DNA of 45,899 nt from a virus. Lineage: Duplodnaviria; Caudoviricetes. A program made the position numbers and the translations under genes. The stretch is from IMG/VR virus record IMGVR_UViG_3300005323_000062, positions 1 through 45,899 of that record. The stretch is one strand, 5' to 3'. The notes under the pieces were generated by a model. The model was not told where the DNA came from and made no database searches. It saw nothing but the letters and a program-made list of their open reading frames with translations. This document shows positions 9,758 through 42,753 of this stretch, in pieces; the first letter of the stretch is position 1; every line of letters starts with the position of its first letter.

Positions 9758-9768
9758 CTTACATACAC

Positions 9769-25064: not shown

Positions 25065-25074
25065 TTTATAAATA
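25065..25074 (+). promoter_or_regulatory. TATA box upstream of the structured RNA region
   Basis: TTTATAAATA. Confidence 0.5.
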
Positions 25075-25099
25075 ACTGGTGGGTTTTTAAGTTTGTATG

Positions 25100-26832: not shown

Positions 26833-26844
26833 AGGCGATTGTTA

Positions 26845-26961
26845 ATGCCGGTAGAAGTTAAGGTTAATAATGGTTGTCGTTTGCGTAAGCGTGAGGCTAA
26901 AGAGTTTATCGTGACTATTACGGAAGAACGGGTTCATTTAGGGGTTGTTTGTTTATGGTAG
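26845..26961 (+). CDS. 38-aa peptide with a degenerate CRF-type motif (NGCRLRKR)
   Basis: Not in track; AGGCGA RBS-like site; MPVEVKVNNGCRLRKREAKEFIVTITEERVHLGVVCLW*. Confidence 0.45.
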   Translation: MPVEVKVNNGCRLRKREAKEFIVTITEERVHLGVVCLW

Positions 26962-27299: not shown

Positions 27300-27473
27300 A
27301 TGGCTGATAATTGCGTAGAAGTCAAGGGTAAGGCTATTTTCTTGGATGGTCGCGTGTTGTTGGAAGGCGACGAGTTGGTTCGTTTTAAAGAGAGCCTAGA
27401 CTTCGTGTTAAAGTATGTTAAACCTTGTGACGGGTTAGTAGAAATCAAGACGGCGGTGGATGCGTGTGGCTAA
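27300..27473 (+). CDS. 57-aa hypothetical protein
   Basis: Not in track; GGGTGG RBS; MADNCVEVKGK...; stop overlaps the next start. Confidence 0.6.
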   Translation: MADNCVEVKGKAIFLDGRVLLEGDELVRFKESLDFVLKYVKPCDGLVEIKTAVDACG

Positions 27474-27864
27474 TTGTCGGTTTCATAAGCGTTTCTCTAA
27501 CCCGAATGGGTCTAATGGCGGGTGTTTTTTGCTTCCTCATGTTGCAGAAGGTTGGGATAATCAAGTCTTGTATGCTTGTGGTGATTCGCCCGAAGGGGCT
27601 TTAATAAGGTTTAAAGAAGGCAAACAAGAAGAAACGAGTAGTAGTAGTTGGGGTGGTTCTAGTTTTATTCTTTGTGCTGTTGTAAAAGGTAGGCTGGGTT
27701 TTTCGTCTGACGAGCCTTTGCCTCTTGTTTTGCAAGTGTTACCTGACACGATTACTGTTGCTGAGTTAGCGGTTGTCATGGAAGCTAATAAAGAGTCTCG
27801 TTTGCAGACTCGACCGTTTTTGATTATTAATAAGAATAACATTAAACCGGAATGGTGGTTGTGA
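27466..27864 (+). CDS. NCRF-tag family protein 1 (MANCRFHKR)
   Basis: GTG start after GGTGGA; shared N-terminal motif. Confidence 0.8.
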   Translation: MANCRFHKRFSNPNGSNGGCFLLPHVAEGWDNQVLYACGDSPEGALIRFKEGKQEETSSSSWGGSSFILCAVVKGRLGFSSDEPLPLVLQVLPDTITVAELAVVMEANKESRLQTRPFLIINKNNIKPEWWL

Positions 27865-28166
27865 ATGCCTGTATGCGTGGATAGGTTGTGGGTTTTGATG
27901 GGTGCGTCGCAATACTCGCGTAATCGGTCAAGGGAACGCCGTTTGGGTATGCACAAAGAGAATGTGCCGCGTGGTCAAGGCGTGGCTCAAAAACGGGGGT
28001 TTGGGAAGTGCCTTTGATTTTTGATGATGGGGAGTTAGTTGGTATTCAAGGATTGCCTCCAACTGAAGATATGGTTTTGACTGCGGTTAATCCTATGAAT
28101 AGTAAGAATCCAGTAGTAGTCTTGCCTAATCTTAAAGTTAAGAAGTTAAAGAAAGGGTGATTGGGT

Positions 28167-28421
28167 ATGGGTAGAGTGTTTAGCGTGTTCGCGCTAGTAG
28201 TGCTAGCGTTGAGTGTTGGCGTTAATGCTCTTAGCGTGTTTGAGTTTAAGGACGCTATGTGGAAGCAGACGGCTAAAGCGTTGAAGTTTAGTCCTAGTTC
28301 GGCTAAGTATTTGGCTGTTTGTTATACTACTTTCAATGGGCAACTGGTAAGTTATAATTGTTTTACTCGTTACCCATTCATTGAGGCTAAGCCTAGTAGT
28401 ATTGGGGCTTTGATTAAGTAG
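28167..28421 (+). CDS. Small protein with signal peptide
   Basis: MGRVFSVFALVVLALSVGVNA-; GGGTGA RBS. Confidence 0.65.
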   Translation: MGRVFSVFALVVLALSVGVNALSVFEFKDAMWKQTAKALKFSPSSAKYLAVCYTTFNGQLVSYNCFTRYPFIEAKPSSIGALIK

Positions 28422-28811
28422 GTTCAGATGCTTATTCTCAGAGGGGAACGTGGCGATGGTGTAAGGTGGTGTGAGGCTTTCGCTCTGTCAAGTAGTTGAA
28501 GAAAGAAGGGTGACTTAAACCTGTGGGAGTTGGGTTGCTTTTTAAAGTATTTGGCGAAGATGGATTGTTAGCGATAGCATTGCGTAGCACGCCCAACAGC
28601 GGTCTTTGCGGCTTAGCCGGTTACGACCAAGTTGGGGTGGTTTCAGTTCGAGTCTGAACGGCGCGTTCTCTTTTGGGGGTTCGTGGTTCTTGGTGGCGCA
28701 ACACCGTGTTGTCAAGAGCTAGTTTATATAATGTATTATGTGATGCGCGTGTATTGGCACACGCGTATTGTTTGGGTGGTGGGTGTAAGCCGCCCAAACC
28801 GCGATTATTGG

Positions 28812-28893
28812 GTTGGTGTAGCAAATTGGATAATGCGAGTGGCTCAAGACCTCTTGCCTTAGGGCTTAGCAGGTTCGATTCCTGCCACCAACA
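28812..28893 (+). tRNA. trnL: tRNA-Leu (anticodon CAA), no encoded CCA
   Basis: Acceptor GTTGGTG/CACCAAC-A; D arm GCA..TGG..TGC; anticodon arm AGTGG-CTCAAGA-CCTCT (one U-U); long variable arm; T arm GCAGG-TTCGATT-CCTGC; TTTATATAA at 28723. Confidence 0.9.
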
Positions 28894-28908
28894 TTAAAGG
28901 TGTTTTGA

Positions 28909-29280
28909 GTGGGGAATTGTCGGTTTAGGGTTAGGAAGATTCCCGACTTTGAGGTTTATAGGGTGTTTAATGACGTGGGTGGAAGATATCATGACCCCTA
29001 TATTACTAGTAGTGATTATGCACAATCCATACTTAATGCCTTATATGAGTATCAACGCGATAATCCAAATAGGCATTATTGTATTGGTGTCGTGATGAAA
29101 GCTACTCATACAGGTAGTTCGGGAACTTGGGATGTTACTTATCGGGTAGTTCCTGCTAGTGTGTCGGCTGAATACTTAGAAGCGATACCGCACGAAGCGT
29201 CTTATAATGGTCATAGTCCTTTTGTGGTTTTGAATCGGGATTTGTTGTTGGATAGGTGGCGGGTAAAGAAAGATGGCTAA
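28909..29280 (+). CDS. NCRF-tag family protein 2 (MGNCRFRVR)
   Basis: AGGTG RBS; paralog of the next gene. Confidence 0.8.
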   Translation: MGNCRFRVRKIPDFEVYRVFNDVGGRYHDPYITSSDYAQSILNALYEYQRDNPNRHYCIGVVMKATHTGSSGTWDVTYRVVPASVSAEYLEAIPHEASYNGHSPFVVLNRDLLLDRWRVKKDG

Positions 29281-29638
29281 CTGTCGGTTTAGGGTTAGAA
29301 AAGTTGATTCTCTTACGGCGGGTGTTATTCATTTGCCTGCGGGAATAGCCCTTGACCCTTATTATCGGGGTTTTCAATCTGCGGAGTCAATGAAAAACGC
29401 GCTGAGTCGTTTTATTTCAGAGTTTCCAGATATGAAATTTGCTATGAGTGTTGTTCTTAACGTTAGCATTATTCGTGGTTTGTATGATATGAAGGTGCGG
29501 TTGGTTCCTGCAACTTTGTCGGTTGATGAAATTCAAGCTATGCTAGTTCCTTTTGATGAGAATACTTATCATTTTGTGATTATTAATATGGATTTGGTTA
29601 CTGACGCTATGCGAGTGAGTGAAAATGAGCAATTGTAG
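29273..29638 (+). CDS. NCRF-tag family protein 3 (MANCRFRVR)
   Basis: Shares DPY...S..NAL...R.VPA..S...F.V.N.DL with 28909. Confidence 0.8.
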   Translation: MANCRFRVRKVDSLTAGVIHLPAGIALDPYYRGFQSAESMKNALSRFISEFPDMKFAMSVVLNVSIIRGLYDMKVRLVPATLSVDEIQAMLVPFDENTYHFVIINMDLVTDAMRVSENEQL

Positions 29639-29945
29639 ATTTCATAAGCGCGATGTCTTTAAGGGGTTGTGCGACCCTTATGGTTTGATTTCTCAAGCAC
29701 CTAAAATTATAGTTTTGGGGGAATTCACTATTAGTAGGGTGTCAGATTCATATTTAGAAGCGCGTGAAACAGTAGAAAAGTATGCGATTGCTATGCCTAT
29801 TCGGGATAGTTATCACCCATATTATATTTATGTCGAGAATGGTGTTAATTCTCTTAAGTTGGTTACGACTGAGGAAGACGTTAAAGCCAAAAGAGTTTTT
29901 TATATAGTAATGATTCGTAGGTCGTGGTTTGGTTTTAGGAATTAA
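29625..29945 (+). CDS. NCRF-tag family protein 4 (MSNCRFHKR)
   Basis: Start moved to ATG 29625; paralog of the next gene. Confidence 0.8.
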   Translation: MSNCRFHKRDVFKGLCDPYGLISQAPKIIVLGEFTISRVSDSYLEARETVEKYAIAMPIRDSYHPYYIYVENGVNSLKLVTTEEDVKAKRVFYIVMIRRSWFGFRN

Positions 29946-29971
29946 TGATTTTCGTGTGGAAGTGGGCTAGA

Positions 29972-30316
29972 ATGGCTAACTGTAGATTTCATAAGCGGGA
30001 TGTTCTTTCTTTAGGGTTGCTAACTTGTAAAAGTAAGATTGGAAGAACGCTTTCTCCTCCAAGCACTCTTTCTTTCGATTTTGCAGAATCAAAAATAGAA
30101 GGTAGTTTTTCTAGGTATGTTGAAGCGGTAAATCGGCAAGCTGAATTAACTAAACGTTTTCCTCCAGAAAAAGCCTATAACCCCTATTTTATATATACGG
30201 AAGAAGCGGGCAACCCCATTTCATTTAGGTTAGTTACTACTACTAGTCAAATCCTTAAAAGGAAGTGTTTCGTGTTGATAGAATTAAACCAAAGTTATTG
30301 CAAGGAGGTGGGCTAA
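29972..30316 (+). CDS. NCRF-tag family protein 5 (MANCRFHKR)
   Basis: Start moved to ATG 29972; shares Y.EA, Y.PY.IY.E and LVTT with 29625. Confidence 0.8.
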   Translation: MANCRFHKRDVLSLGLLTCKSKIGRTLSPPSTLSFDFAESKIEGSFSRYVEAVNRQAELTKRFPPEKAYNPYFIYTEEAGNPISFRLVTTTSQILKRKCFVLIELNQSYCKEVG

Positions 30317-30318
30317 AA

Positions 30319-30624
30319 ATGCCTGCGAGAAAAACTAAGAAGAAAACTAGCAAAGCGAGTGGCGTAGAACGCATACCGAAGGATGTCCTGTCTGTAAAGA
30401 TGGGGACAGATGATAAGACGGTTCGTTTCAAGCTGTTCGCCAACCCGTCAGGTGACGGAGTAGATTTGAGGGCAGTCAATCGTTTTGGTGAGCCGAGGGA
30501 AAAGAGCCTCTTGCTTACAATACACAAGACGGGACTGATGGAACGCCACGCCAATGTCAGCGACAAACTGCACTTGAAGAAGAACAGGTATGGACAACTC
30601 TTGCAAAAGAAGTTCCGCGCCTAA
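30319..30624 (+). CDS. Basic small protein (paralog of 34814-35074)
   Basis: GGAGGTG RBS; MPARKTKKK...; followed by hairpin and T-rich tract (30647-30680). Confidence 0.75.
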   Translation: MPARKTKKKTSKASGVERIPKDVLSVKMGTDDKTVRFKLFANPSGDGVDLRAVNRFGEPREKSLLLTIHKTGLMERHANVSDKLHLKKNRYGQLLQKKFRA

Positions 30625-30703
30625 AACAAACCAGCAAAAGAGAATTGGGGGGCTTAATTAACCCCCTTATTCTTTCATTTTAAAACGGAGTTGATGGAGG
30701 AAT

Positions 30704-31987
30704 ATGAAAAGCGAAGTGAGTTTGGGTTGTGACCCAGAGTTTCTGATACTCGCTAAGGGTAGCACTGCGAGTAATGCGACCGTGTTACCAGCAGACCATT
30801 ATTTTAATGGTTCGATGGAAGCGGCGGTTGGTCACGATGGTCATTCTTCGACAGGAGAGTTGCGACCAAAACCAGCGGATTCGGCGGCAGAGTTGGTTGC
30901 TAACATTAGGCCGTTGATTCAAGAAATTTACAAGACGGTGCGTAAAGACGCCAAGTTTGGTTTGGTTTCTGCGGGTAACGGTGTGCGTGACCCGATTGGT
31001 GGTCATATTCACTTTGGTTATGTTGATGAACCAAGCGAATTCACTAAGCAGTGTTTGGATTTGTTCTTTAGCATTCCGTTGGCTTTGATTGAACAAGACC
31101 CGTATAATAAGAAACGCAGAACAGGTGACGGTTATGGTCAGCTTGCTACTACTAACTCTAGCGGCATTCGGATTCAATCTGCTTATGGATTCGAGTATCG
31201 TCCTCCCGCTAGTTGGTTAGTGTCTAAAGATATTGCTCTGTCAGCATTGTCTTTGGCTCACTGGGTTTGCGAACAATCTTATATGAAAGGAAGTCCCGCG
31301 TATAAGGCAATGCAGGTTGGAGTTGGAAAGATTACTGACTGGAATAATCTTAATTCTAAGTTTAAGAACGCGGATAAGACTTACTTGAAGCAAATTTATG
31401 ATTCACACATTAAAGGAGTAATAGACCTAGCACCCGACGAAGTTAAAGCTAACACTAAGACTTTGCGTGGAATGATTGACCGGCGTGAGTCTTGGAATGA
31501 ATGGCAAGACTTATCCGTTGGGTGGGGCTTGTCTTTTAATGGTGCGGTCGAAATTCAACCTTTCAATTTTGCTCACCGCGTCTTTGGCTTGCGTAGCATT
31601 GAAGCGCAGGTTAATACGCCGTTGATGGTTAATGAGGCTTTCAAGCCAATTAACATTGTTGGCGTTAGTGATTCTAATGCTAAGCGAGATGATTATACTG
31701 GCGCGATGTTGGTTTCAAGTAACTTGGCGGCTGGTGGCGAAAAGAGCGACTTGTTTAAGTCTTTCGCGTCATCTTTTGAAGATGCGGATTTGGAAGAAGA
31801 CCCGCTGTTGCCTGAGAACACTATTTCAATCGCCGAACATATCCGATACAATGAAAAGAGCCGCGCTTGTTTGGCTGAGTTCTTGACTAAATATCGTGCT
31901 AGTATGAAGGCGGCAGTAGAATTGAATGGGGCGGGTAAGCCTAAGAAAGTTCGCGCTAGCCGCCATGCGGCTTGTGGTAATGCGTAG
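30704..31987 (+). CDS. phiEco32-like COOH-NH2 ligase (glutamine-synthetase-fold amidoligase)
   Basis: LGCDPEF, GHDG...GELRP, PIGGHIHFG, RR..GYG, YGFEYR..SWL motifs. Confidence 0.85.
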   Translation: MKSEVSLGCDPEFLILAKGSTASNATVLPADHYFNGSMEAAVGHDGHSSTGELRPKPADSAAELVANIRPLIQEIYKTVRKDAKFGLVSAGNGVRDPIGGHIHFGYVDEPSEFTKQCLDLFFSIPLALIEQDPYNKKRRTGDGYGQLATTNSSGIRIQSAYGFEYRPPASWLVSKDIALSALSLAHWVCEQSYMKGSPAYKAMQVGVGKITDWNNLNSKFKNADKTYLKQIYDSHIKGVIDLAPDEVKANTKTLRGMIDRRESWNEWQDLSVGWGLSFNGAVEIQPFNFAHRVFGLRSIEAQVNTPLMVNEAFKPINIVGVSDSNAKRDDYTGAMLVSSNLAAGGEKSDLFKSFASSFEDADLEEDPLLPENTISIAEHIRYNEKSRACLAEFLTKYRASMKAAVELNGAGKPKKVRASRHAACGNA

Positions 31988-32002
31988 AGAGAGTGATTAT
32001 GT

Positions 32003-33364
32003 ATGTGTGGTATAGCTGGTTTGATTAAGTTGAAAGGTTCTACTCTTGACACCAAGACGCAACAACTATTGTTAGAGCGTCTTTTGTATGGCATTGAACC
32101 GCGAGGGGGGCAAGCTAGTGGGATTGGTTGTTACTGGTTTGGTTCTGAACGCAAAAGTCATTGGGCTAAGCAAGCGGCTGGCGCAGAGCGTTTCATTCAA
32201 TCCAAGTTCTTCGTTCAGGCAGCGACTATGGACGCTCACGCGTTCTTCTTGCACTCTAGGTTAGCGACGACGGGTAGTGTTGATAATCTTAATAACAATC
32301 ACCCCGTTCTGACTGAGCATTGTTCTCTGGTTCATAATGGCACTTTTTCTCAATGGAATTATAATAAGACTATGGAACGGGATGGTTTGAAACCAATGGC
32401 TAAAACTGAGGTTGATTCTCAGATTATTGGCTTGATGCACGATAAGTTTAAAGACGCTCGTGAAGCAGTCAAACACTTGGACGGTTCTTTTGCTTATGCT
32501 TTGTTTGATGACCGTTATAACCGCATTCAAATCGTAAAGCACTCTAATCCGGTTGTCGTGGCTTTGATTGAGGAGTTGAAGATAGTCTTATTCGCTAGCA
32601 CTAGGGAAGCTATTGAGTATGCTATTTGCGAGTTTGAATGCAAGTATAACTTCTTTGTTGTTCGTCGTCCTCGTTGGCAAGCGAATTATATTGAAATGAA
32701 GGACGATACGCTGCTTGAGTTTAACTTTACTAAGGACTCTTTCGTGGCGGATTATGTCCAGCCGGATAGTATAAAGAGTTCTCAGTCAGGTGCTTGTAAT
32801 GGCTGGTATGATGCTAATGGAAACTTTCATGCTTATTGGGAAGGCGAGGATGACGAGTTAGGAACACCATATCGCGGTTCTAACAATCAGACGATTCATG
32901 TTAAAAAAAACAGCGAAGATGGGTCTAGCGGAGTTCTTGTAGATAAAGTTATTAGGGTTATAAGGAATAGTGAGTTGCCGCCAAATCGGTTTGAGATTTC
33001 TCGCAACTTGGTTGATGATGAAGCCGGAAACCCGTTTTTAACAATGCTTAATTTGTGTTTCAAACAAGATATTAAGCAGGGCGTGTTGGGTGGGGCTAAA
33101 GGTTTTATCGTCACGCTTGATGATAAGGTTGATAATGTTGTTCGTTGTAATCGTATTTGGATGAAGCGTAAGGATGTTTGTGGGCGTTTCTCTGAAATTA
33201 TGGATACGATGGAAGCGATGATTGGTTTTGAAGATGAGGAAGCTAGAGCTGAAGAAGCTATGACTGAAACGGATATTAGTAAAGCGTTGGACGAAGAAGC
33301 GCAAGCGGCTTTGAGTGCTAGTGCGGATGCTGAAATTATGGAACAACAAGTAACTAATAACTAA
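32003..33364 (+). CDS. Class II (Ntn) glutamine amidotransferase with acidic C-terminal extension
   Basis: MCGIAG, RG..ASG, HSRLAT.G, NNHP, VHNG, EVDS, LDGSFA, FAST. Confidence 0.9.
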   Translation: MCGIAGLIKLKGSTLDTKTQQLLLERLLYGIEPRGGQASGIGCYWFGSERKSHWAKQAAGAERFIQSKFFVQAATMDAHAFFLHSRLATTGSVDNLNNNHPVLTEHCSLVHNGTFSQWNYNKTMERDGLKPMAKTEVDSQIIGLMHDKFKDAREAVKHLDGSFAYALFDDRYNRIQIVKHSNPVVVALIEELKIVLFASTREAIEYAICEFECKYNFFVVRRPRWQANYIEMKDDTLLEFNFTKDSFVADYVQPDSIKSSQSGACNGWYDANGNFHAYWEGEDDELGTPYRGSNNQTIHVKKNSEDGSSGVLVDKVIRVIRNSELPPNRFEISRNLVDDEAGNPFLTMLNLCFKQDIKQGVLGGAKGFIVTLDDKVDNVVRCNRIWMKRKDVCGRFSEIMDTMEAMIGFEDEEARAEEAMTETDISKALDEEAQAALSASADAEIMEQQVTNN

Positions 33365-33374
33365 GGTGTTTTGG

Positions 33375-33767
33375 ATGGGTAATTGTCGTTTTAGAGTTCG
33401 TGCGCTTCCCGTTGGACGAAAGTTTATTATCAAAGTTGATATTAGTAGGCGCATACACATACTAGAACCTGCTTGGATTAGGGGTTATGCTGGAGCGAAT
33501 TACGCTTTGCTTTCTTTAAAAGAAATGCGAGAAAGTGAACCATTCCGCCGTTTTGTTTTGGCTAGAACTTTACGAAAGGACGACCAACCGCCCGATAGCT
33601 TGTTAATAACTTTAGAATTGATAAAAGAGGGCATTACTCCTGAAGTTTTGGAATTTTTGCGAGTTTCAAACGAGTTTAGGCGCGACACTTTTCCGTTTGT
33701 GATTGTTGATTTGGATAAAATTGGTTCTGGTGATTGGTTGGATGAAAAAGCGAGTAAAAAAGTGTAG
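33375..33767 (+). CDS. NCRF-tag family protein 6 (MGNCRFRVR)
   Basis: AGGTG RBS; directly after the amidotransferase. Confidence 0.8.
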   Translation: MGNCRFRVRALPVGRKFIIKVDISRRIHILEPAWIRGYAGANYALLSLKEMRESEPFRRFVLARTLRKDDQPPDSLLITLELIKEGITPEVLEFLRVSNEFRRDTFPFVIVDLDKIGSGDWLDEKASKKV

Positions 33768-34137
33768 GTTTCACCAGAGGGATATTAGTTTTGATAAGCC
33801 TTGGACTTTCGCGCCTAAAAGGATAAATATGGATAATTATATATATACGGCTTATAAACGTAATGTTAGTTCTTCGCGTATTTTGATTGCGGATAGTAAT
33901 ACTCTTGGTAGGTTGAGGTCACGCTTTAAAGATATGGCGGCGTTTTATAAACACGATTGTTTAACTGACAATGACGAAGTTAACGAATATATTTTGATAG
34001 AACCAAAAGATTACGCTACTCAAAAGGGTTGTATTGTAACTTGCCATTGGAGTGAAGAGTTCATTGCTTTGCCGGTTGATTCTATTAAGCGCATACTATC
34101 GGGCGACCCGAAGATAAGGTCTGATTATGATGATTAA
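33742..34137 (+). CDS. NCRF-tag family protein 7 (MKKRVKKCRFHQR)
   Basis: GGTGA RBS before ATG 33742; variant motif. Confidence 0.7.
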   Translation: MKKRVKKCRFHQRDISFDKPWTFAPKRINMDNYIYTAYKRNVSSSRILIADSNTLGRLRSRFKDMAAFYKHDCLTDNDEVNEYILIEPKDYATQKGCIVTCHWSEEFIALPVDSIKRILSGDPKIRSDYDD

Positions 34138-34149
34138 GAGGTGTTTTAA

Positions 34150-34677
34150 GTGGCTTTCAAAGTAAGAAAATTGCCCGTCCCGAAGATGATTAAGTGTTAT
34201 GAAGATATACCTAACGGGTTTAATAGCACTTTCACGGAACGCATTGACACTATGAATGAGCATTTGGATTGGCAGAACTCGGCTACGGGTAATGTTAGGC
34301 GACAATTGTTCTTTTATAGGGCGGTTAGACCTAATTATAGAGCGTCTTTTGATAGTTATAATGAACGAACAGGTAATAGTTCGAGTAGTTCGTTTTTGAA
34401 CGAGTATGAGTTAATGGTTGGTTTTAATAGCCGTGTTGAACCTAATCGTTCTGGGGCTTTGAGTTTGGATTATCCTGTTTGGGCTAAGAAACCGTTTTTG
34501 ATTGTGATGAAGGAAGATATTATCAAAGATAAGAAAAAGAAAGAAGCAACTGCGACTAGCGTTGGGGCTGAAACCGTAACGACAGATGAAGGTATTGTGT
34601 TGTCTATGCCAAGATTTGTTTATGGTGCAGTTACCGACGAGCCGAGCGGTTTTACTGGCACGAGTATCAATAGGTAG
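34150..34677 (+). CDS. Hypothetical protein (starts MAFKVRK, possibly a truncated tag)
   Basis: GAGGTG RBS; KPFLIV segment recalls RPFLII/SPFVVL of tag-family members. Confidence 0.7.
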   Translation: MAFKVRKLPVPKMIKCYEDIPNGFNSTFTERIDTMNEHLDWQNSATGNVRRQLFFYRAVRPNYRASFDSYNERTGNSSSSSFLNEYELMVGFNSRVEPNRSGALSLDYPVWAKKPFLIVMKEDIIKDKKKKEATATSVGAETVTTDEGIVLSMPRFVYGAVTDEPSGFTGTSINR

Positions 34678-34813
34678 GCTATGCCAGACCCAGAAGAACC
34701 TTAAACTGTTACTATCGTGTAGTAGTTTCGGTAGGTATATATTCAATCGTATGCATTATATTCATTGCCCGTTTTTTGGGGTAGTTAAAAAAAACAAAGT
34801 AGGTGAGAACGGA

Positions 34814-35074
34814 ATGGCGAAGAAATTCGGCTTGTCCATATACGGACGGGCTAAGAGTAAGTCGGAAAAGGGGAACACGACTCTCGCCCTCGTTGCGAAC
34901 AGCAAGAGGGGCGGGGTAAGCGTGGTCGCTGTTGACGACAAGGGGGCTATCATGAAGAATGGTTGGCTCGTAACTTTCTGTGGAGATGGTAAGATTTACC
35001 GCCACAAGAAGGTTGACAAGGCACTTGGTTTCGCTCTTAAGAACAAGAGCGCAGTCCTGATGAAGAAACTCTAA
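34814..35074 (+). CDS. Basic small protein (paralog of 30319-30624)
   Basis: AGGTGA RBS, MAKKFGL...; followed by long hairpin 35098-35138. Confidence 0.75.
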   Translation: MAKKFGLSIYGRAKSKSEKGNTTLALVANSKRGGVSVVAVDDKGAIMKNGWLVTFCGDGKIYRHKKVDKALGFALKNKSAVLMKKL

Positions 35075-35172
35075 GGGCTAAGAACTAGTGCTTTTTTGGG
35101 TTGGGGGTAATCTCTCGTTTGAGTGTTATCTCCAACCCCCTAATTCTATTTCTTTATGGTGGGTGTTTTTGT

Positions 35173-35521
35173 AATGGGTAGGCCAGTAAAATTTGTTGGT
35201 TGCCACTTCCCTAATTGTGATGGGAAGCATTATTCTTTGGGTTTGTGTACGAAGCATTATCATAATAGGCGTGGGCGCATTCGTAATGCGGTTGCTTTAG
35301 ATACGTTTATTTTGATTGTTACTCGCTTTCCGGCATTGCCGAAGGGTGTTCGTGAGCCGCGTAAAGATTTGACTGCTTATCAGAGGGTAAAGGGTAATGG
35401 TCATGCGCGTTTGTGTCCAAAGTGTGGCAAGGTAACGCATACTAAGCCGCCCTTTTTGTGTCCTTTATGCACTATGAGGACGCCTTCTCGTGCTAAGCGG
35501 CGGTTGATTGGTAATGAGTAA
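35173..35521 (+). CDS. Zinc-finger protein
   Basis: C.FPNC...GLCTKHY and CPKC...CPLC. Confidence 0.65.
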
Positions 35522-35756
35522 TTGTCGGTTTCATCGCCCCACTTTAACAGAGCGCGTTAAAATATGGTATAAATACTCGTTTATGCTAGACCTAGATTAT
35601 AGGATTTGGTGGTTGCGAGCTTATTATCGCGTAGTTAAAAATGACGCTTCTCATACTGATGCTGCAACGTGGTTTATATTCGGGTGGGTGATAGTAATGG
35701 CTACTTTTATAGGTTTTATGTTAGGTAGTATTTTGGGTAGGCTTGTTGGTGGTTGA
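35514..35756 (+). CDS. NCRF-tag family protein 8 (MSNCRFHRP) with C-terminal TM helix
   Basis: Motif plus WFIFGWVIVMATFIGFMLGSILG. Confidence 0.75.
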   Translation: MSNCRFHRPTLTERVKIWYKYSFMLDLDYRIWWLRAYYRVVKNDASHTDAATWFIFGWVIVMATFIGFMLGSILGRLVGG

Positions 35757-36139
35757 GGTTGCCGTATTCCAGAATAGAAGACCGTAGGGCGGCTGTCACT
35801 AGACATTATCATCGTAACCCGCGAAAGGTTATAGCTTGGAATTTAGCTAGGCGCGGTAAGTATCGCACTCTTGTTCAAGAGTATAAGCGAGCTAAGGGTT
35901 GTGCTAAGTGTGGGTTACGTGAGCCAGTGTGTTTAGACTTTCACCACGTTAGAGGTAAGAAAGAGGCTTTAATTAGTGCGCTTTTAAACAGTGGCTTTGG
36001 CTGGGAACGTATCTACGCCGAGATGGTTAAGTGCGAGATACTCTGTGCTAATTGCCACCGTTTATTACACTGGCGAGCCACGCATCCAGCTTCTCCTTCC
36101 AGTCGCGTGAACGCACGGCGAAGTAGCAGTGCGCGTTGA
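35753..36139 (+). CDS. HNH endonuclease
   Basis: CAKCG...LDFHH...KCEILCANCHR. Confidence 0.85.
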   Translation: MRLPYSRIEDRRAAVTRHYHRNPRKVIAWNLARRGKYRTLVQEYKRAKGCAKCGLREPVCLDFHHVRGKKEALISALLNSGFGWERIYAEMVKCEILCANCHRLLHWRATHPASPSSRVNARRSSSAR

Positions 36140-36350
36140 GGTCTAGGCAGAATTTAGTGAACTCTACCTCTTCACGGGGGTCATACCTCCCGTTTTTGCA
36201 TTGTATTAAAAGGGGGGATTCCCCCTTTTTTATTGCGGCTAAATCGGCTTTCCCGTGGGAGCCAGCCGCTCGGATGACAAACCATCCTTTGCTTTCCAAG
36301 TAGTGTTTTATTTCATATTCGTAGCGGGTTCCTTTTGAATATTTCGTCAT
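36048..36350 (-). CDS. hjc: Archaeal-type Holliday junction resolvase
   Basis: KGTRYEYE...L...GWFVIRAAGS...DL.A......LIQCK (PD-(D/E)xK, Hjc pattern). Confidence 0.85.
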   Translation of the reverse strand: MTKYSKGTRYEYEIKHYLESKGWFVIRAAGSHGKADLAAIKKGESPLLIQCKNGRYDPREEVEFTKFCLDLNAHCYFAVRSRDWKEKLDAWLASVINGGN

Positions 36351-36368
36351 ACTTTTATATTATGAATG

Positions 36369-36386
36369 CGAAGGTATATATACTTG
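36369..36386. promoter_or_regulatory. Probable bidirectional TATA promoter (CGAAGGTATATATACTTG)
   Basis: Palindromic GTATATATAC between divergent hjc and replication operon; 17/18 identical to 40011-40028. Confidence 0.6.
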
Positions 36387-36428
36387 AGTGACACTAAATC
36401 TAATAAGTTGGATTAAGGGGGTTTGAAA

Positions 36429-36626
36429 ATGTTAACACAAACAGCAGTAGAAGCAATCATAGCCCCAGACGAGTTTCAAAAGTTCTTAGATTACGGCAAG
36501 ACAGTTCAAATACCTATTGGTTGTAATCACAAGGGACAACAAATGTATTTCGAGTATGACGTTCAACAGTATTTAAAAAAGAGGGATAAAGATGCCGAAT
36601 TGTCGGTTTCACAAACGAAAGTTTGA
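36429..36626 (+). CDS. Hypothetical protein
   Basis: GGGGG RBS; first gene of the replication operon. Confidence 0.6.
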   Translation: MLTQTAVEAIIAPDEFQKFLDYGKTVQIPIGCNHKGQQMYFEYDVQQYLKKRDKDAELSVSQTKV

Positions 36627-36816
36627 CCTGACATATCTCAGAGGTTTTTCCAAAAGCCATCATTATAGTTTGTTGGTGGGAATATATCGGCGTAGGTTAG
36701 TATATTATAATTCCAAAACGCAAGAAATGATGTATCCTGACGTTTTTAGAAAAATGGTAAAATCAAGCGGTTATAAAATGAAAGAAGTGTTCCCAAATGC
36801 CAAACTGCAGATTTAG
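36592..36816 (+). CDS. NCRF-tag family protein 9 (MPNCRFHKR)
   Basis: Motif at ATG; GAGGGA RBS. Confidence 0.8.
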   Translation: MPNCRFHKRKFDLTYLRGFSKSHHYSLLVGIYRRRLVYYNSKTQEMMYPDVFRKMVKSSGYKMKEVFPNAKLQI

Positions 36817-37063
36817 AGTAAGAGATTGTTCCAAATCGTCGTCCATAGGTTCTAAAATTAAGGATGAATTGGAAAAAATTCCACAATTTGCTTTAGTTCC
36901 CGGTGAACGTGCGAAATTTTTAATAGATGTATTTGCTCTCCCTACCGGAGAACCAATAATAACAGGTATGCGTATTGAAAAGACCAGACTGGACTATTTC
37001 AGTATTGGTGGTAGAAGCCAAAGGGCTTCTGAAAGATTCTACAAAATTACTAAGAGTGTGTGA
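36797..37063 (+). CDS. NCRF-tag family protein 10 (MPNCRFRVR)
   Basis: Motif at ATG. Confidence 0.8.
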   Translation: MPNCRFRVRDCSKSSSIGSKIKDELEKIPQFALVPGERAKFLIDVFALPTGEPIITGMRIEKTRLDYFSIGGRSQRASERFYKITKSV

Positions 37064-37069
37064 TTAAAT

Positions 37070-37264
37070 ATGCCAGAGTACAGTAAAGGTGACAAGTTCA
37101 CCGAAAAACTAACCAAAAGCGGCGGAAGCCACTACCTCCTAGTAGGGGAGAGCCTCAAGAAATACTTGGGATTAGAAGACGCAGACAACGACGAGCTGGT
37201 TCTCTTAATAGAAGAGTCAAAGAAAGGCAAATACCTAGCAATATACAAAAAGAACGGCGTTTAA
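37070..37264 (+). CDS. AbrB/MazE-like DNA-binding protein
   Basis: KLTKSGGSHYLLV...LKKYLGLE pattern. Confidence 0.55.
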   Translation: MPEYSKGDKFTEKLTKSGGSHYLLVGESLKKYLGLEDADNDELVLLIEESKKGKYLAIYKKNGV

Positions 37265-37266
37265 CA

Positions 37267-39279
37267 TTGGATGATAACTTCTCAGAACTAGTAATAGCCG
37301 TCTTCGCGCCCCTACGCGCAGCCGGAGTTAGCCCAGAAACCCAAGAGGTTTACAAACAAAAATACATAGCCCAATACGCAAACAAAGACGGGGCGGGAAT
37401 AATCGCCACGAGCAAAGAACTAAAAACGAGATTCGACTATCTAAAAGAAGAACACCTTGCACAAATATATATCTATGCTACTTCCGCATGGGAAACAACC
37501 CCCCTATCAGAGATTCAACTCTCTCCGAGTATGCGGACTGATGCGGTTGTGTTGGCGTTGAAGCCGAAGGTTATGAATGGCTCTACGTTTCAAATACACA
37601 AGATAGAGGGGGCGTTCCCCTTCAATGACGTAAAGCGAATGATACGCGATACGACGGTCTTAGACTTGTCCGATGAAGCTAAATGCAAACTACCCTTCTT
37701 CATATCTAAAGAGTTAACGCTTGGCGGGAACATAACTTCTTCGTTGGATAAGAAAGACAAGAGTTACTCTTTATACGAAGTGGGTATTAACGAGAAGACT
37801 AACGAGGTTAAGTTCTTATTCATAGGCGAACCCAGAAAGAAAGGACACCCGATGGGCGACATAATGACCTTCTCAATGCCACTCTATACTTACAAGTTCT
37901 TAGCCGAAGATGGACGCGAATACGTCTTATTCTCAGTCAAAGAATTGACGCTGGGTAGGCACAAAGTTACTGGTATGCGAATAGTAATCAGCGACTTGTC
38001 ACCCTTTGGTGACTCAGCCAAATTCTCAACAATGCGCCAAGTCCTATTCGTCCACACAGCAGAACCAGACATACACCAATTAAAACCAGAAGAAGCGCAA
38101 GCAATAGCATCCAAACACGATTACGAAACATTCATGTACTCCTTACGCGGCGGTTACAAACACCCCGTTTGGTTTGAAAAATTCATGGCAGCGTGGCTCT
38201 TATCAGGCAAAGACAGTGGCTATCCATTGCACATAGCTTGGCTATCCGAGGCGGGCGGGGGCAAGTCAAAATACATGACTGCGCTCTACGAGCAGTTTCG
38301 AGAACTGCAAAGGCCAGCAGCAATAGGAACACTCAAGGGTTTAGTTCCTCACTTTGGTGGAAGTGTGCCTGATGAGGGGTATCTGTGCAAGTGCCAGAGG
38401 TTCGGGTTCGTTGACGAGTTTTTCTCCATCCTCCGTCGCTCAACCTTCAACAAACAGGACACGGACTCTGGCACTAGCCTGATGCTACCCATCTTGGAAC
38501 ACATGACTTACCAAGGGGATTCGGGTTCACACGCTTCAATAACGGTTAAGCCGAGTATGCGGGCGTTGTTCTGTTCAAACATGAAGAACTATTATGGGTT
38601 CGAGAATATGTTTGAGATTAGTCAACACATTAGCAACGCTTTCATGTCCCGTATATTGTGGTATGTGCAGACTGACGCTCACGTTGCTTTTGTGAACGCT
38701 TACAAAGCTAAGGTAGCTGAGGCTGAGCGTGAGGCTGGCGAACCACTTTACCCCAAACATAGTGCCGAGTTCGTTAGTTTGGTAGATTATTGCACTAGCT
38801 TCATGTTGCCCGTCAAGTCGGAAACGGTTGAACAGATTTACGCCGAGTATGAAACTCGCGCCGTGCCGGACGGTTTGGCGGAAGTGTATAGGGCTAGGTC
38901 TCGTCACCACATTGCTTGCTTGGTGGACGGTATTGCTAAGGTTAATTGGATTACTCAAAAGCGTGACAAGTTGGAGATTAGGGACGAGGACATTATAGAG
39001 GCTAGTGCGATTTTCGGCACGATAATCTTGTCATGGACTCCACAATCAGCGTTGGGTAATGAGTGGGTTCCGGTTAGCATTAAGCTGAACTACTTGTCTT
39101 ACGACCAGCGTAAGTTGTATGACTTTATAAAGTCCAAGCCCAACGTGGGACGGGAAGATGCTTTAGTGTTTGCTCCAAATTCAGAAGCTAACCTGCAATT
39201 CTTGGTTGATAAAGGATTGTTAGAGTTAAAACGCTCAGAAGAGTTTGGAAAATGGTTATACGAAGCGAAGGCGGGTTAG
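37267..39279 (+). CDS. mcm: MCM-like AAA+ replicative helicase (divergent)
   Basis: LHIAWLSEAGGGKS (Walker A), T.KGL, GYL...GFVDEF (Walker B), ILE, FMSR arginine finger, sensor-2-like R, winged-helix-like C-terminus. Confidence 0.7.
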   Translation: MDDNFSELVIAVFAPLRAAGVSPETQEVYKQKYIAQYANKDGAGIIATSKELKTRFDYLKEEHLAQIYIYATSAWETTPLSEIQLSPSMRTDAVVLALKPKVMNGSTFQIHKIEGAFPFNDVKRMIRDTTVLDLSDEAKCKLPFFISKELTLGGNITSSLDKKDKSYSLYEVGINEKTNEVKFLFIGEPRKKGHPMGDIMTFSMPLYTYKFLAEDGREYVLFSVKELTLGRHKVTGMRIVISDLSPFGDSAKFSTMRQVLFVHTAEPDIHQLKPEEAQAIASKHDYETFMYSLRGGYKHPVWFEKFMAAWLLSGKDSGYPLHIAWLSEAGGGKSKYMTALYEQFRELQRPAAIGTLKGLVPHFGGSVPDEGYLCKCQRFGFVDEFFSILRRSTFNKQDTDSGTSLMLPILEHMTYQGDSGSHASITVKPSMRALFCSNMKNYYGFENMFEISQHISNAFMSRILWYVQTDAHVAFVNAYKAKVAEAEREAGEPLYPKHSAEFVSLVDYCTSFMLPVKSETVEQIYAEYETRAVPDGLAEVYRARSRHHIACLVDGIAKVNWITQKRDKLEIRDEDIIEASAIFGTIILSWTPQSALGNEWVPVSIKLNYLSYDQRKLYDFIKSKPNVGREDALVFAPNSEANLQFLVDKGLLELKRSEEFGKWLYEAKAG

Positions 39280-39296
39280 AGTGGGAGTTGATTGAA

Positions 39297-39434
39297 ATGA
39301 AGTGTCAACATTGTGGGTGGTCAGAAGGAATTTCTTTCTATGACATTAGCACGGTAAATATCGAAGTCATTTACATTAAGTTTCACTGCAAAAAGTGTGG
39401 CTATGTCCAAGAAGAGCGTTCAAAGGAGGAATGA
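39297..39434 (+). CDS. Small zinc-ribbon protein
   Basis: MKCQHCG...CKKCG. Confidence 0.6.
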   Translation: MKCQHCGWSEGISFYDISTVNIEVIYIKFHCKKCGYVQEERSKEE

Positions 39435-39437
39435 AAG

Positions 39438-39608
39438 ATGGCAGATTATATGAAGGTAGGAAAGATAGTTCAAGCGTCAAACCCAATTTGTTTATCTTGT
39501 AGATTATGGCATTTGCAAGAAACATTTGGAACAGATAACAAAAAGTATTGGAAATGTGGTCGTTGCAATGCTATGTTCGATTTCATTCCAATGAAGAAGC
39601 GGGTGTGA
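39438..39608 (+). CDS. 56-aa zinc-ribbon protein
   Basis: Not in track; GGAGG RBS; CLSC...WKCGRC. Confidence 0.6.
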   Translation: MADYMKVGKIVQASNPICLSCRLWHLQETFGTDNKKYWKCGRCNAMFDFIPMKKRV

Positions 39609-40021
39609 TGTTGTTCGTGATACAAACAAAGACGGCAGACGGAATTTATTTTGAAGTAGACCAACTACTTCATAGTAGAGATGCATACTTACCTTGTAGG
39701 TCAGAGAAAGGTAAAGAAGTTGCAAATAAGTGCGAAATTGGTTTAAAACAAGAATTTGTTTCTTTTTCTGATTATCAAGCTGAACGTGAGAAAGACCAGC
39801 AAGCGTTCCAGAAGACACTTGACAAAGCCCAAGAGATACACGAAGCTGAATGTGTAGCATTAGCAGCAAGAATACGAGAAATCGCCGATGGAATATCCTG
39901 CCTTGATGTCAGATGGTGTGACTTGAATGGAGATATTCGCCTGCTGTGCGATAATTGCCAGCTAAAAAGAAGCTGTTTTTTGTTGGCGGTTGAAATCGAG
40001 GGGAAGAATACGAAGGTATAA
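39608..40021 (+). CDS. Hypothetical protein
   Basis: TGATG coupling with the previous gene; MLFVIQTK... Confidence 0.6.
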   Translation: MLFVIQTKTADGIYFEVDQLLHSRDAYLPCRSEKGKEVANKCEIGLKQEFVSFSDYQAEREKDQQAFQKTLDKAQEIHEAECVALAARIREIADGISCLDVRWCDLNGDIRLLCDNCQLKRSCFLLAVEIEGKNTKV

Positions 40022-40028
40022 ATACTTG
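40011..40028 (+). promoter_or_regulatory. TATA promoter (CGAAGGTATAAATACTTG)
   Basis: Repeat of the motif at 36369. Confidence 0.6.
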
Positions 40029-40054
40029 TACATACATATAAGTGGGGGATTAAA

Positions 40055-40228
40055 ATGTTTGAGAAACGGAAGGAAGTGACGGCGTTAGACCGTCACGAAA
40101 AGGCGGCCAGAGTAATGTCAAAGATGATAAAAATCTTACAAGACGAAGGATTTATCATAGAGACACAAGTTTGCAGACATTTAAGTTATAATGGAGTTAG
40201 TTTCGATATTGATACGGTGTTAAGATGA
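40055..40228 (+). CDS. 57-aa hypothetical protein
   Basis: Not in track; GGGGGA RBS; ATGA overlap with the next gene. Confidence 0.6.
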   Translation: MFEKRKEVTALDRHEKAARVMSKMIKILQDEGFIIETQVCRHLSYNGVSFDIDTVLR

Positions 40229-40479
40229 ATCCGATTATAGCTCGTGAACGGTCTCTCTTCTTGAGGGAAAAGATAATCCAAGCTCTAACAAACTGTCACA
40301 CGCCTACGCCAATAGCGGGTGTTGTGCGGTTGATAAATGACTTCTTGCCTGAAGGTGAGAAGACTAGTCAGAACGTCATATCAGCAAACCTTAAACGCTT
40401 GCAGGATTCGGGTGCACTCGCTCAGAATGGGATTATGCAAGCTAAGATAGGACAATGTAAGTGCTATTATAAACCATGA
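40225..40479 (+). CDS. Winged-helix DNA-binding protein
   Basis: EKIIQAL...TSQNVISANLKRLQDSG...YY. Confidence 0.6.
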   Translation: MNPIIARERSLFLREKIIQALTNCHTPTPIAGVVRLINDFLPEGEKTSQNVISANLKRLQDSGALAQNGIMQAKIGQCKCYYKP

Positions 40480-40488
40480 GGGGATTAA

Positions 40489-40728
40489 ATGACTAAGAAA
40501 GTAGAAGCAAACCCGCGAAAAGATTACTACGACTCAGAAGAACACTATGAGACGCAGAAACTTCGCGACCAGATAAACGTAGCCGAAGACTTGATAAGTA
40601 TATCAAGAACTAACGCTGAAATTAAGGAAACCGAAGCCAAAACAAACTTCGTAGAAATAAAAACCTCAGCAGTAGCGGTGGCAATATTAATTGCAATCGT
40701 ACTCACCGTCAAATACATATTCTTCTAG
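40489..40728 (+). CDS. Small protein with C-terminal TM helix
   Basis: AVAVAILIAIVLTVKYIFF. Confidence 0.65.
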   Translation: MTKKVEANPRKDYYDSEEHYETQKLRDQINVAEDLISISRTNAEIKETEAKTNFVEIKTSAVAVAILIAIVLTVKYIFF

Positions 40729-40780
40729 AAATAGAAGCTAACGCCACGCCAAGGCGTAAAACTGGCGGAAGTGAAACCCA

Positions 40781-41413
40781 ATGGGAGACCTAACACAATG
40801 GGCAGAAGCGGACAAAGAAATCTTGGCAAACACCAAGTATTTCAAACCCGAAATAAACATAGAATACCAAGTATCCTTCGCAGACGTAACGCCTGAAAAG
40901 CGACCTATGCCCGTATGGGAGAAAGGGATTCAGAAGAAAAACCCAGACGGAACACCCATCCTCGCCGACCAGCTAATGGTTGACGTAACAATGGATTCCC
41001 TCAACGGACAGAAGGTGGATATGCTCTTCTCGTTCAGCGCGTCAAGCAAAGCGTTGTATGAAAAGGTCAAATCCTACGATATGAACGGGGTTTTGAAAAC
41101 TTGGCTCTTCTCATTCAAGAAGACCAAGAACGGAAACAAGACGGAGTGGCTTCTGACTCCTATCAAGCAGAAGCCCGCGGCGGCGGCTCCCGCCACCCCT
41201 TCTCTTCCAGAACCACTAGTGGGTTCGATAAAAGTAGATGTTATAAGAATGCCCGGCGTGAACATGGATAAGTTTGAAGCCGTAGCAGCCGATGGTTCGG
41301 TTCATGTCATAACGAAAGGAAAACAGGCCTTACCGGCAGAAATAGCTAGTACCCTAATAGACCACGGTTGTGCAGTTAGAGTAGTAGAGATGAATTTGGC
41401 GAAAGCAATATGA
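40781..41413 (+). CDS. Putative ssDNA-binding protein fused to a GINS B-domain-like C-terminus
   Basis: Beta-rich aromatic N-domain, AAAAPATP linker, then KVDVIR...FEAVAADG...KG...LPAEIASTLIDHGCAVRV. Confidence 0.5.
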   Translation: MGDLTQWAEADKEILANTKYFKPEINIEYQVSFADVTPEKRPMPVWEKGIQKKNPDGTPILADQLMVDVTMDSLNGQKVDMLFSFSASSKALYEKVKSYDMNGVLKTWLFSFKKTKNGNKTEWLLTPIKQKPAAAAPATPSLPEPLVGSIKVDVIRMPGVNMDKFEAVAADGSVHVITKGKQALPAEIASTLIDHGCAVRVVEMNLAKAI

Positions 41414-41494
41414 TAAAAACTCCAGTGTTTAATGAAGAGTCCCTTTGGCTCTTCGCAATCTGGATGGGCATATTAACTTTACTGGTGTTGTTAT

Positions 41495-41815
41495 TTGGTT
41501 GAGCAATTCTTCATAGACCCCGAATCGGGAATAAAACTAGGCATACTGACTACCAGAGGAATCACTGCAGAACACCTATACAACCCATTCACAGACTCGG
41601 ATTTACAGCCGACACCCAAGCCAATACAAGCACCAACCATTCGGTATTATTGTTGGGGTTGTCAAAGTTACATAACCGTGTTTCATCCAGAACACATAAA
41701 CCATTGTCCGGTTTGTGGTGCGATAATGGAGTTTATAAACATTAGGACTCCGAGAGGGCAAGATGTTCTAGCTCAACTGGCTGAACACGATGTTGGAAAG
41801 ATAAGGTGGGATTAG
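41495..41815 (+). CDS. Zinc-ribbon protein
   Basis: YYCWGC...CPVCG. Confidence 0.65.
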   Translation: MVEQFFIDPESGIKLGILTTRGITAEHLYNPFTDSDLQPTPKPIQAPTIRYYCWGCQSYITVFHPEHINHCPVCGAIMEFINIRTPRGQDVLAQLAEHDVGKIRWD

Positions 41816-42093
41816 TGGTAGACGTTGAAGAAGAACACGCTAAACTTAAACTCATACAAAAACTTAGTAGACGAAGACGCAACATAGTTTATAACCCGTA
41901 TAGGTTGGATGGCGTGTTGCCTAAAAATCCAAGAAACTCTCGCTTTACTAAACGCTTGTTGACTCGTCGCTTTTGGCAAGAAGCTCAAGACGACTTAAAA
42001 CTTGGAGTTAAGAGTAAGGAAGAGATTTTTGGCAGGTATTATGATAGAATGGGTTTGTTGCTAGGTTTTATAAAGCCCCGCAACCAAGAATAA
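41806..42093 (+). CDS. Basic hypothetical protein
   Basis: 95 aa, overlaps the previous gene. Confidence 0.6.
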   Translation: MGLVVDVEEEHAKLKLIQKLSRRRRNIVYNPYRLDGVLPKNPRNSRFTKRLLTRRFWQEAQDDLKLGVKSKEEIFGRYYDRMGLLLGFIKPRNQE

Positions 42094-42111
42094 AGATAGG
42101 TGATTTGAAGT

Positions 42112-42339
42112 ATGGTGGACCCAATAGTAATCTTAGCAGGAGTCCTAGGCGGAGCCGTTCTCGGTTGGTCTGGGTTTAGAAAGGCGAGTGTAGATGGTGA
42201 GCCATTCAATCCGCAGAAGTTTGCTTATTCAATGATAGCACCCTTGCTTGGTGGTTTGTTGGCTGGTCTCTGTTCGACAGACATACAGACTGCCGCGCTT
42301 GCGGGTATAGCTGGTAAGCTCATACAAGAGCACATTTGA
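42112..42339 (+). CDS. Small membrane protein (holin-like)
   Basis: AGGTGA RBS; two hydrophobic helices around GEPFNPQKF. Confidence 0.6.
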   Translation: MVDPIVILAGVLGGAVLGWSGFRKASVDGEPFNPQKFAYSMIAPLLGGLLAGLCSTDIQTAALAGIAGKLIQEHI

Positions 42340-42340
42340 C

Positions 42341-42540
42341 GCTAGCCCGAAAAGACCTATAGTCCTTGACTTCCGTCAGGAAGTTGAGGACGGAAGTTCC
42401 AAAAGGACAAGTCGGGGGTTCAGAGTAAGTTAAAGCATCCCTCGGAAATACTAGCGGCGAGTTAGCTAGCCAATGACTCGCACGGCCTAGCGTTTCTGAC
42501 GCGGTGGATAGTGCTTTAACGAGCTATGAAGAACCCCCTT
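42341..42540 (+). ncRNA. Candidate ~200-nt structured RNA or leader
   Basis: GGGGGTTC 42414-21/GAACCCCC 42531-38; GTTAAAGCA 42429-37/TGCTTTAAC 42512-20; hairpins at 42362-42391 and 42457-42481. Confidence 0.5.
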
Positions 42541-42564
42541 CGCCATTATTTGAGGTGGAATAGT

Positions 42565-42753
42565 ATGCCATGTAGATTTAGAAAACGATTTGCTTGCCCA
42601 TTTTGTAAGAGCAACGATACTGTTGTTACATTTATGAGAAAAGGTAGCGACCCCAATGTTAAGATAAGTTTTATAAGTATAACCAACAATGAACAGAAAA
42701 AAATAGAGTTGGATGCTTGTTTGGAATGTGGTAAGTTTTTTAAAGTGAACTAA
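42565..42753 (+). CDS. NCRF-tag family protein 11 (MPCRFRKR), zinc ribbon
   Basis: GAGGTGG RBS before ATG 42565; CPFC...CLECG. Confidence 0.75.
   Translation: MPCRFRKRFACPFCKSNDTVVTFMRKGSDPNVKISFISITNNEQKKIELDACLECGKFFKVN

Follow-up and report, generated by a model that had tools for sequence, protein, structure and literature searches.

The window analysed here comprises all 45,899 nucleotides (nt) of the IMG/VR virus record IMGVR_UViG_3300005323_000062, a complete viral genome of 45.9 kb with direct terminal repeats, in which 11 small proteins open with closely similar forms of the peptide M-x-N-C-R-F-[HR]-[KV]-R, called the tag below. Family searches placed the head-tail module (terminase, portal, prohead protease, capsid and tail tube) on the minus strand, and the plus strand from about 25.9 kb onwards carries the non-structural genes, including all tagged ones. 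The 11 starts had been listed in an earlier sequence-only reading of this DNA, and all of them read as stated there; the genes at 27466 and 28909 start with GTG. In the following list, the eight genes whose bodies behind the tag look like members of one family (class I, with families A and B) precede four short tagged genes; lengths are in amino acids (aa), and "strand at" gives the residue of a C-terminal Phe-hydrophobic strand pattern.

27466..27864, plus strand: class I, family A; 132 aa, tag NCRFHKR, strand at 118
28909..29280, plus strand: class I, family A; 123 aa, tag NCRFRVR, strand at 105; first gene after a tRNA
29273..29638, plus strand: class I, family A; 121 aa, tag NCRFRVR; residues 1-15 disordered and 16-117 folded in the structural model
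29625..29945, plus strand: class I, family B; 106 aa, tag NCRFHKR, strand at 92
29972..30316, plus strand: class I, family B; 114 aa, tag NCRFHKR, strand at 100
33375..33767, plus strand: class I, family A; 130 aa, tag NCRFRVR, strand at 108; directly after an amidotransferase gene
33742..34137, plus strand: probable class I; 131 aa, KCRFHQR behind a basic extension of seven residues, strand at 107
34150..34677, plus strand: probable class I; 175 aa, tag reduced to its half F-K-V-R (N-C-R absent), strand at 116
35514..35756, plus strand: short tagged protein; 80 aa, NCRFHRP, predicted C-terminal membrane helix (hydropathy 2.14)
36592..36816, plus strand: short tagged protein; 74 aa, NCRFHKR, similarity to class I not detected
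36797..37063, plus strand: short tagged protein; 88 aa, NCRFRVR, at least five silent differences from every tag of the same peptide
42565..42753, plus strand: short tagged protein; 62 aa, PCRFRKR, zinc-ribbon-like CxxC...CxxC body (Pfam E value 0.007, below the cut-off)

A six-frame scan of the window detected the core C-R-F-[HR] 12 times, and 11 of these copies are the tagged plus-strand starts; the twelfth is an off-frame minus-strand copy within the portal gene. Within the first eight residues of the 44 plus-strand genes, only 0.0018 occurrences were expected, and none of these genes contains an internal C-R-F. The same three residues stand within the first 13 positions of 11 of the 65 proteins, while the next unrelated N- or C-terminal 3-mer is common to just three of the 65. 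The starts themselves are backed by a ribosome site of the GGTG/GAGG type (4-6 nt) located 6-8 nt upstream in seven cases and by a 3-nt match only in the other four. Nine of the ten tagged proteins looked up in a public protein collection are called there from the tagged start. The exception is the gene at 29972, which is called from 29945, an alternative start that puts the tag nine residues into the protein; for 35514, an additional public call of 57 aa omits the tag. Most tagged genes overlap or abut the preceding gene, and several upstream genes end inside the motif.

Because eight of the 11 tags continue with a hydrophobic residue (I, V, L or F) two places after the last Arg, the motif extends over about 11 residues and may be written as M-x-N-C-R-F-[HR]-[KV]-R-x-hydrophobic. 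The Cys is invariant in all 11 tags, and its distance from the N-terminus varies (positions 3, 4 and 8). In eight tags, H is paired with K or R with V, which keeps the charge near +3; the copies are not independent of each other, and the pairing would fit an acidic binding site.

Two degenerate versions of the tag had also been proposed. The gene at 34150 indeed belongs here, as a family member retaining only F-K-V-R. The open reading frame (ORF) at 26845 had to be removed from the set, as it shares a 60-nt repeat of 70% identity with the start of the zinc-finger gene at 27133, its CRLR aligns with the CPLC knuckle of that gene, and it reaches only 10.6 bits with the tag matrix described below. 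The duplicated gene start (26828-26887 and 27116-27175) hints that a C-R-x-R start can arise from a zinc knuckle.

26845..26961, plus strand: 38-aa ORF containing GCRLRKR, probably a decayed copy of the 27133 start and not a tag

The nucleotide sequences of the tags demonstrate that selection acts on the peptide and not on a DNA site. A weight matrix derived from the DNA of the 11 sites ranked these sites 1 to 11 (26.2-17.4 bits), with the next site at 13.4 bits; no intergenic or antisense copy scored above 13.4 bits with this matrix, and neither an antisense RNA nor a repeat copy of the motif was found. Information is lowest at the third codon positions (0.70 bits vs. 1.30 and 1.54 at the others), both Arg positions use CGN as well as AGR codons, and the peptide was kept in none of 20,000 shuffles of the bases within columns. 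Moreover, the 12 pairs with an identical seven-residue core differ by 2-7 nt, every change being silent. The synonymous variation cited in the sequence-only reading therefore stands as a sign of peptide-level selection, except that the Cys and Phe codons barely vary (TGT in 10 of 11, TTT in 11 of 11). This excess is significant against average plus-strand usage (p = 0.00075) but not against the tagged genes' own usage (p = 0.105), which is rich in T-ending codons (214:61 vs. 540:458). The 5' folding energy around the tagged starts is no different from that of untagged genes (p = 0.50).

The bodies behind the tag are less diverse than the initial description as unrelated proteins with only two paralog pairs had suggested, which was overstated. 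With the tag removed, the four family A proteins (27466, 28909, 29273 and 33375) are related at local z values of 2.6-21 and the two family B proteins (29625 and 29972) at z 14, while 33742 leans towards family B (z 3.7 to 29972). Profiles of the A and B bodies alone did not detect each other with hhalign (probability 0.08). However, a Phe followed by three hydrophobic residues occurs once each at residues 92-118 in seven tagged genes and in 34150, that is, in eight of the 12 bodies, compared with just eight occurrences in the 12,047 aa of 53 untagged proteins. Composition shuffles gave P values of 0.03-0.05 for each of the four strand-bearing genes outside family A, with a product of about 3e-6 for a pattern that was selected with the sequences already in view. 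A DNA repeat spans this C-terminal strand in 27466, 29273, 33375 and 34150. Structural models of families A and B, resting on two to four sequences, end alike in the order strand-helix-strand-strand-helix-strand, and in fold searches against 48,161 solved chains, both had 7w63_A as top match (Z 4.0 and 4.3) and shared five of 50 listed entries. No nameable fold emerged from these searches, with no match above Z 4.3 and none under an E value of 0.15; a pilin domain was rejected, the shared top match being too weak to name the fold. Judged from sequence and models, these eight bodies look like one old, divergent and expanded paralog family, apparently with an uncatalogued small fold. The tag is fully retained while the bodies fall to 20-34% identity, and both of its forms (HKR and RVR) occur within family A, so the form of the tag does not follow the body.

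Several features border the tagged runs. A gene for tRNA-Leu(CAA) occupies 28812-28893, leaving 15 nt to the start of the main tagged run, and the 390 nt upstream of this tRNA contain a 16-pair hairpin at 28684-28721. The two tagged runs are closed by small basic genes rich in C-ending codons, located at 30319-30624 and 34814-35074. These two align with z 5-5.6, yet gave no BLASTP alignment, and their paralogy is unconfirmed.

The four short tagged proteins (35514, 36592, 36797 and 42565) lack the C-terminal Phe-hydrophobic strand, and no link to family A was detected for 36592 and 36797. As proposed initially, the tag is found on a membrane protein and a zinc ribbon, thus on at least two clearly different bodies, and by sequence comparison it spans at least three body classes. 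The objection that all carriers may form an ordinary paralog family consequently applies to the eight bodies that look like one family, but not to the clearly different ones. The tags of the short genes are also unlike recent neutral copies: that of 36797 is at least five silent changes away from any tag of the same peptide (P 4e-4 if unselected) and that of 36592 at least three (P 0.009). These two neighbours both open with M-P-N, yet carry different forms of the tag, HKR and RVR, respectively.

In the better of the two models, that of family A (mean predicted local distance difference test score, pLDDT, of 76), residues 1-15 are unstructured with pLDDT values below 50 and the domain starts at residue 16, with values of 77-90 in most blocks of the body; the tag is thus predicted to be disordered. 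A stronger, genetic argument for a tag free of the fold is that it persists, changed only silently, on bodies unable to hold the family fold.

Searches outside this genome returned mainly the virus itself. The family A profile found four of 550 candidates and the family B profile three of 70, all from the own virus. Among 1.84 billion representatives, family A gave six matches, namely the four own proteins and two long multi-stretch proteins (E value 1e-4). The bodies matched nothing in annotated phages and no known family above cut-off, Atlas searches gave no usable match for 29273 and only scores of 0.80 for 36797, and profiles A and B detected nothing among 14 large proteins of the same virus. 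For the tag itself, the scans used exact patterns of the HKR or RVR forms only, by which a drifted tag would be missed. Three viral scans yielded no locus, with records very near this genome possibly excluded, and ten distantly related virus records contained no tag. A metagenome scan gave 56 loci, nine of which lie in a 155-kb contig that is a concatemer of this virus (100% identical). The other 47 are single matches in 13 contexts and were rejected, as 46 are enclosed by a longer open frame in a different phase and the remaining one reads C-S-F. In 185,579 genomes, seven matches were obtained against about seven expected by chance, and no relative was shown among them. Hence, the motif search in other viral contigs and cellular genomes proposed with the sequence-only reading turned up nothing beyond chance. 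A scan with the capsid protein for related viruses recovered this virus only, relatives from the terminase scan reached only 26-32% identity, and relatives of the ligase described below 27-37%. No description of the motif was found in the literature, where coverage was thin for subscription papers, and string matches were unrelated. The tag is a real and undescribed peptide motif.

The record represents an uncultured tailed virus, probably with an archaeal host. We infer the host from the capsid protein, whose sole matches in 50,697 phage records are to Haloarcula tailed virus 2 (24% identity, E value 8e-6), together with an encoded archaeal-type Holliday junction resolvase above the family cut-off and ribosome sites of the GGTG type. 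The terminase has its best matches in Thermus phages (about 30%) and is uninformative on the host. Three groundwater DNA runs, two of them possibly the source, contain the virus DNA, and no variant was present in any tag across them. No repeat-flanked spacer was found in loose-end contigs, and no RNA run was among the listed carriers of the virus sequence.

We favour, with moderate confidence, the interpretation that the tag is the flexible N-terminal docking peptide of one paralog family, grafted onto two or three other bodies and binding one putative partner. The tag would have arisen in the founder of the eight-gene family and nothing else of the N-terminus would have been kept as the bodies drifted apart to about 20-33% identity or below. 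Recombination would then have moved the gene start, consisting of the ribosome site and about nine codons, onto two or three other bodies, where selection retained the tag. It may bind as an extended peptide, with Cys and Phe on one face and Arg, His and Lys on the other, facing an acidic pocket. Its reader would most likely be a host cytoplasmic protein, either a hub or a protease, the latter making the tag a degron, and the diverging bodies might be exchangeable effectors or adaptors used in taking over the host or countering its defences. From the portable address tag suggested at the outset, this keeps the selected peptide and its presence on at least two different bodies, but most of the carriers look like one family. 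A bolder version, which we put forward only tentatively, is a modular adaptor library in which a portable Cys-Arg-Phe gene-start cassette, distributed by recombination, plugs 11 of the 44 non-structural proteins, a membrane anchor and a zinc ribbon among them, into one receptor that is as yet undescribed. It is equally tentative that this receptor is a host hub or, by strand donation, the family's own fold, and that new effectors are obtained by gaining nine codons.

A number of observations weigh against a grafted docking peptide. The short proteins are perhaps not independent, as there is a weak likeness over 20 aa between 35514 and 34150 (E value 8e-4) and another between 36797 and 42565 (z 3.2). 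Their bodies may be deletion or chimera products of a few genes, leaving two or three independent grafts, and 36797 and 36592 could have gained their silent changes before the grafting. The family B model, which is poor (mean pLDDT 49), has a strand from C4 to H7 in its better-than-average part, which fits an integral strand, and low pLDDT values from a four-sequence alignment can reflect model failure rather than disorder of the tag. At least one member, 34150, can do without the full tag, having lost N-C-R. No cellular protein with the motif was found in the sequence searches that the tag could mimic, and the single partner is putative. Finally, the evidence comes from one genome.

The same elements may be arranged differently. 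In a self-assembling system, the tag would be a donor strand docking into a groove on another class I body, giving mixed oligomers of paralogs with the short proteins, such as the membrane anchor and the zinc ribbon, as caps or cargo. Several findings suit such an assembly: just two elements, the tag and the C-terminal hydrophobic strand, recur in all class I members; one monomer model has the tag disordered and the other as a strand; and the class I genes lie in overlapping runs. We still regard it as unlikely, since the C-terminal strand may merely be a buried core strand of the fold and 34150 retains this strand with half of the tag gone. Also improbable is an ordinary divergent family, in which the motif is an intramolecular first strand or a metal ligand and the short genes are recent, decaying chimeras. 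It draws on the second motif in eight of the 12 bodies, which is rare in untagged proteins, on the agreement of the two models in element order and fold matches, on the strand at residues 4-7 of the family B model, and on the diversified paralog arrays known from archaeal viruses (available part of PMC11065993). However, the better model puts the tag outside the fold, the tags of the short genes differ just silently at three to five sites, unlike recent neutral copies, and half of the tags have an Arg where a C-x-x-H metal site needs His.

The tagged cluster encloses genes for two enzymes which might act on the tag:

30704..31987, plus strand: phiEco32-like COOH-NH2 ligase (PF14395, 116 bits vs. 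a cut-off of 25)
32003..33364, plus strand: class II glutamine amidotransferase with an acidic C-terminal extension (PF13522, 41.5 vs. a cut-off of 27)

Both carry a C-terminal extension of about 140-180 residues without a family match, and the amidotransferase has a net charge of -16, which makes it a candidate partner for a basic tag. The position of this pair in the middle of the cluster and the invariant Cys would suit a leader that is modified by the two enzymes or cut by the protease encoded at 43082. We consider this very unlikely, and it gained no support from a comparison with 30 other viral ligase loci. None of these had an N-terminal 4-mer shared by more than four ORFs within 10 kb, compared with nine ORFs in the window, and the motif was absent from five whole records with the ligase module. 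Because 15 of the 30 untagged loci also encode the amidotransferase, the pair is a common module that is not tied to tags. Furthermore, the position of the Cys varies, and related ligase families without a Pup-like neighbour are expected to make small peptides rather than to conjugate proteins, according to the available part of PMC2588565. One of the compared loci (L083) has an ORF with C-R-F beside the ligase, which was dismissed as unrelated because the motif lies 15 residues into a zinc-ribbon-type protein. In one run (4723-10783), the same locus contains a pair of COOH-NH2 ligases together with an amidotransferase and a gene that looks ATP-grasp-like from sequence only.

A capsid-loading signal, also suggested initially, is no better placed. 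About ten conserved N-terminal residues on small, mostly basic, divergent proteins resemble those of the internal proteins of T-even phages, as far as the available parts of PMC3012670 and PMC9026906 describe them, and the virus has a prohead protease. Yet one carrier, 35514, is predicted to span a membrane, the tag is absent from the structural and scaffold-region proteins, and [LIF]-x-E occurs within the first 30 residues of only one of the 11 tagged proteins, although the virus's own protease may cut elsewhere. The fraction of T-ending codons in the tagged genes (0.62-0.88) also differs from that of the major capsid gene (0.38), a bias shared by many tail genes. This explanation is therefore quite improbable and was not strengthened by any of the results. 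The least probable alternative is that a nucleic-acid site (DNA or mRNA), or an influence of the nascent peptide on translation, lies in frame at gene starts by chance: the near-invariant TGT and TTT codons and the upstream genes ending within the motif would suit it, but the variation follows the genetic code, no out-of-frame, intergenic or antisense copy is among the top sites, the codon excess vanishes against local usage, and the folding energy is ordinary. These results weigh on a nucleic-acid site more than on a nascent-peptide effect.

Some other regions of the genome deserve mention. Between the divergent gene blocks, about 2 kb (23830-25900) contain no convincing gene and gave no Rfam match, and the GC skew changes sign close to 23.9 kb, going from about -0.6 to +0.3; this region is likely an origin or control region and possibly contains a structured RNA. 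The Holliday junction resolvase gene (36048-36350) lies on the minus strand inside the plus-strand block and overlaps the end of an HNH gene. A protein of 670 aa (37267-39279) has no match in Pfam, PHROG, NCBIfam or solved structures; it contains stretches which we take to be Walker-like, suggesting a very divergent helicase. A transglutaminase-like cysteine protease with a coiled-coil region (43082-43963) adjoins a small membrane protein at 42112, and the two possibly form a lysis pair.

If the tag is indeed a docking peptide, a bait made of its nine residues would identify the host or viral hub shared by a quarter of the non-structural proteins, and this for a group of hosts in which hardly any takeover mechanism is known; the tag would also show a virus building new effectors by grafting a gene start. 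The value is limited by the single genome, the inferred host and the putative reader. Compared with known systems, a phiEco32-type module (PF14395 and PF13522) is present inside the tagged cluster, but comes without shared tags in the 30 other viral loci, and a tag is no known part of it. According to the available part of PMC11065993, archaeal viruses have paralog arrays of the AcrID1 type in early anti-defence clusters, with a shared upstream DNA promoter motif. The present genes likewise include many small and very divergent paralogs in what is here a non-structural region, whereas their shared element is a translated peptide on mostly overlapping genes, and they match no known family. The best structural matches of the bodies were weak (Z 4.0-4.3), with no viral match under an E value of 0.001, and a rough look for TATA elements in the 11 upstream regions revealed no common box.

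At the peptide level, the PCNA-binding motif APIM, [KR]-[FYW]-[LIVA]-[LIVA]-[KR] in the available part of PMC6881253, is a similarly short, basic-aromatic linear motif with R-F-x-x-R spacing and possible N-terminal placement. It was rejected as an identity of the tag, as none of the 11 tags has the full consensus (four of five positions in four tags, three in six and two in one), its position 3 is always His or Arg in the tags, and their invariant Asn-Cys lies outside APIM. The closest counterpart is the capsid targeting sequence of phage T4, which in the internal proteins IPI-III ends in an L/I-x-E protease site (available part of PMC9026906). Common to both, as far as this source and the available part of PMC3012670 go, are the approximately ten N-terminal residues on small, diverse, mostly basic viral proteins and the proposed logic of routing varied proteins to a single destination. 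The T4 sequence marks soluble capsid cargo, whereas the present tags lack a site of the L/I-x-E type in ten of 11 cases, have an invariant Cys-Arg-Phe, include one membrane carrier and are borne for the most part by one paralog family. By analogy, the tag would thus work most like the T4 capsid targeting sequence in its logic, although we do not class it there.

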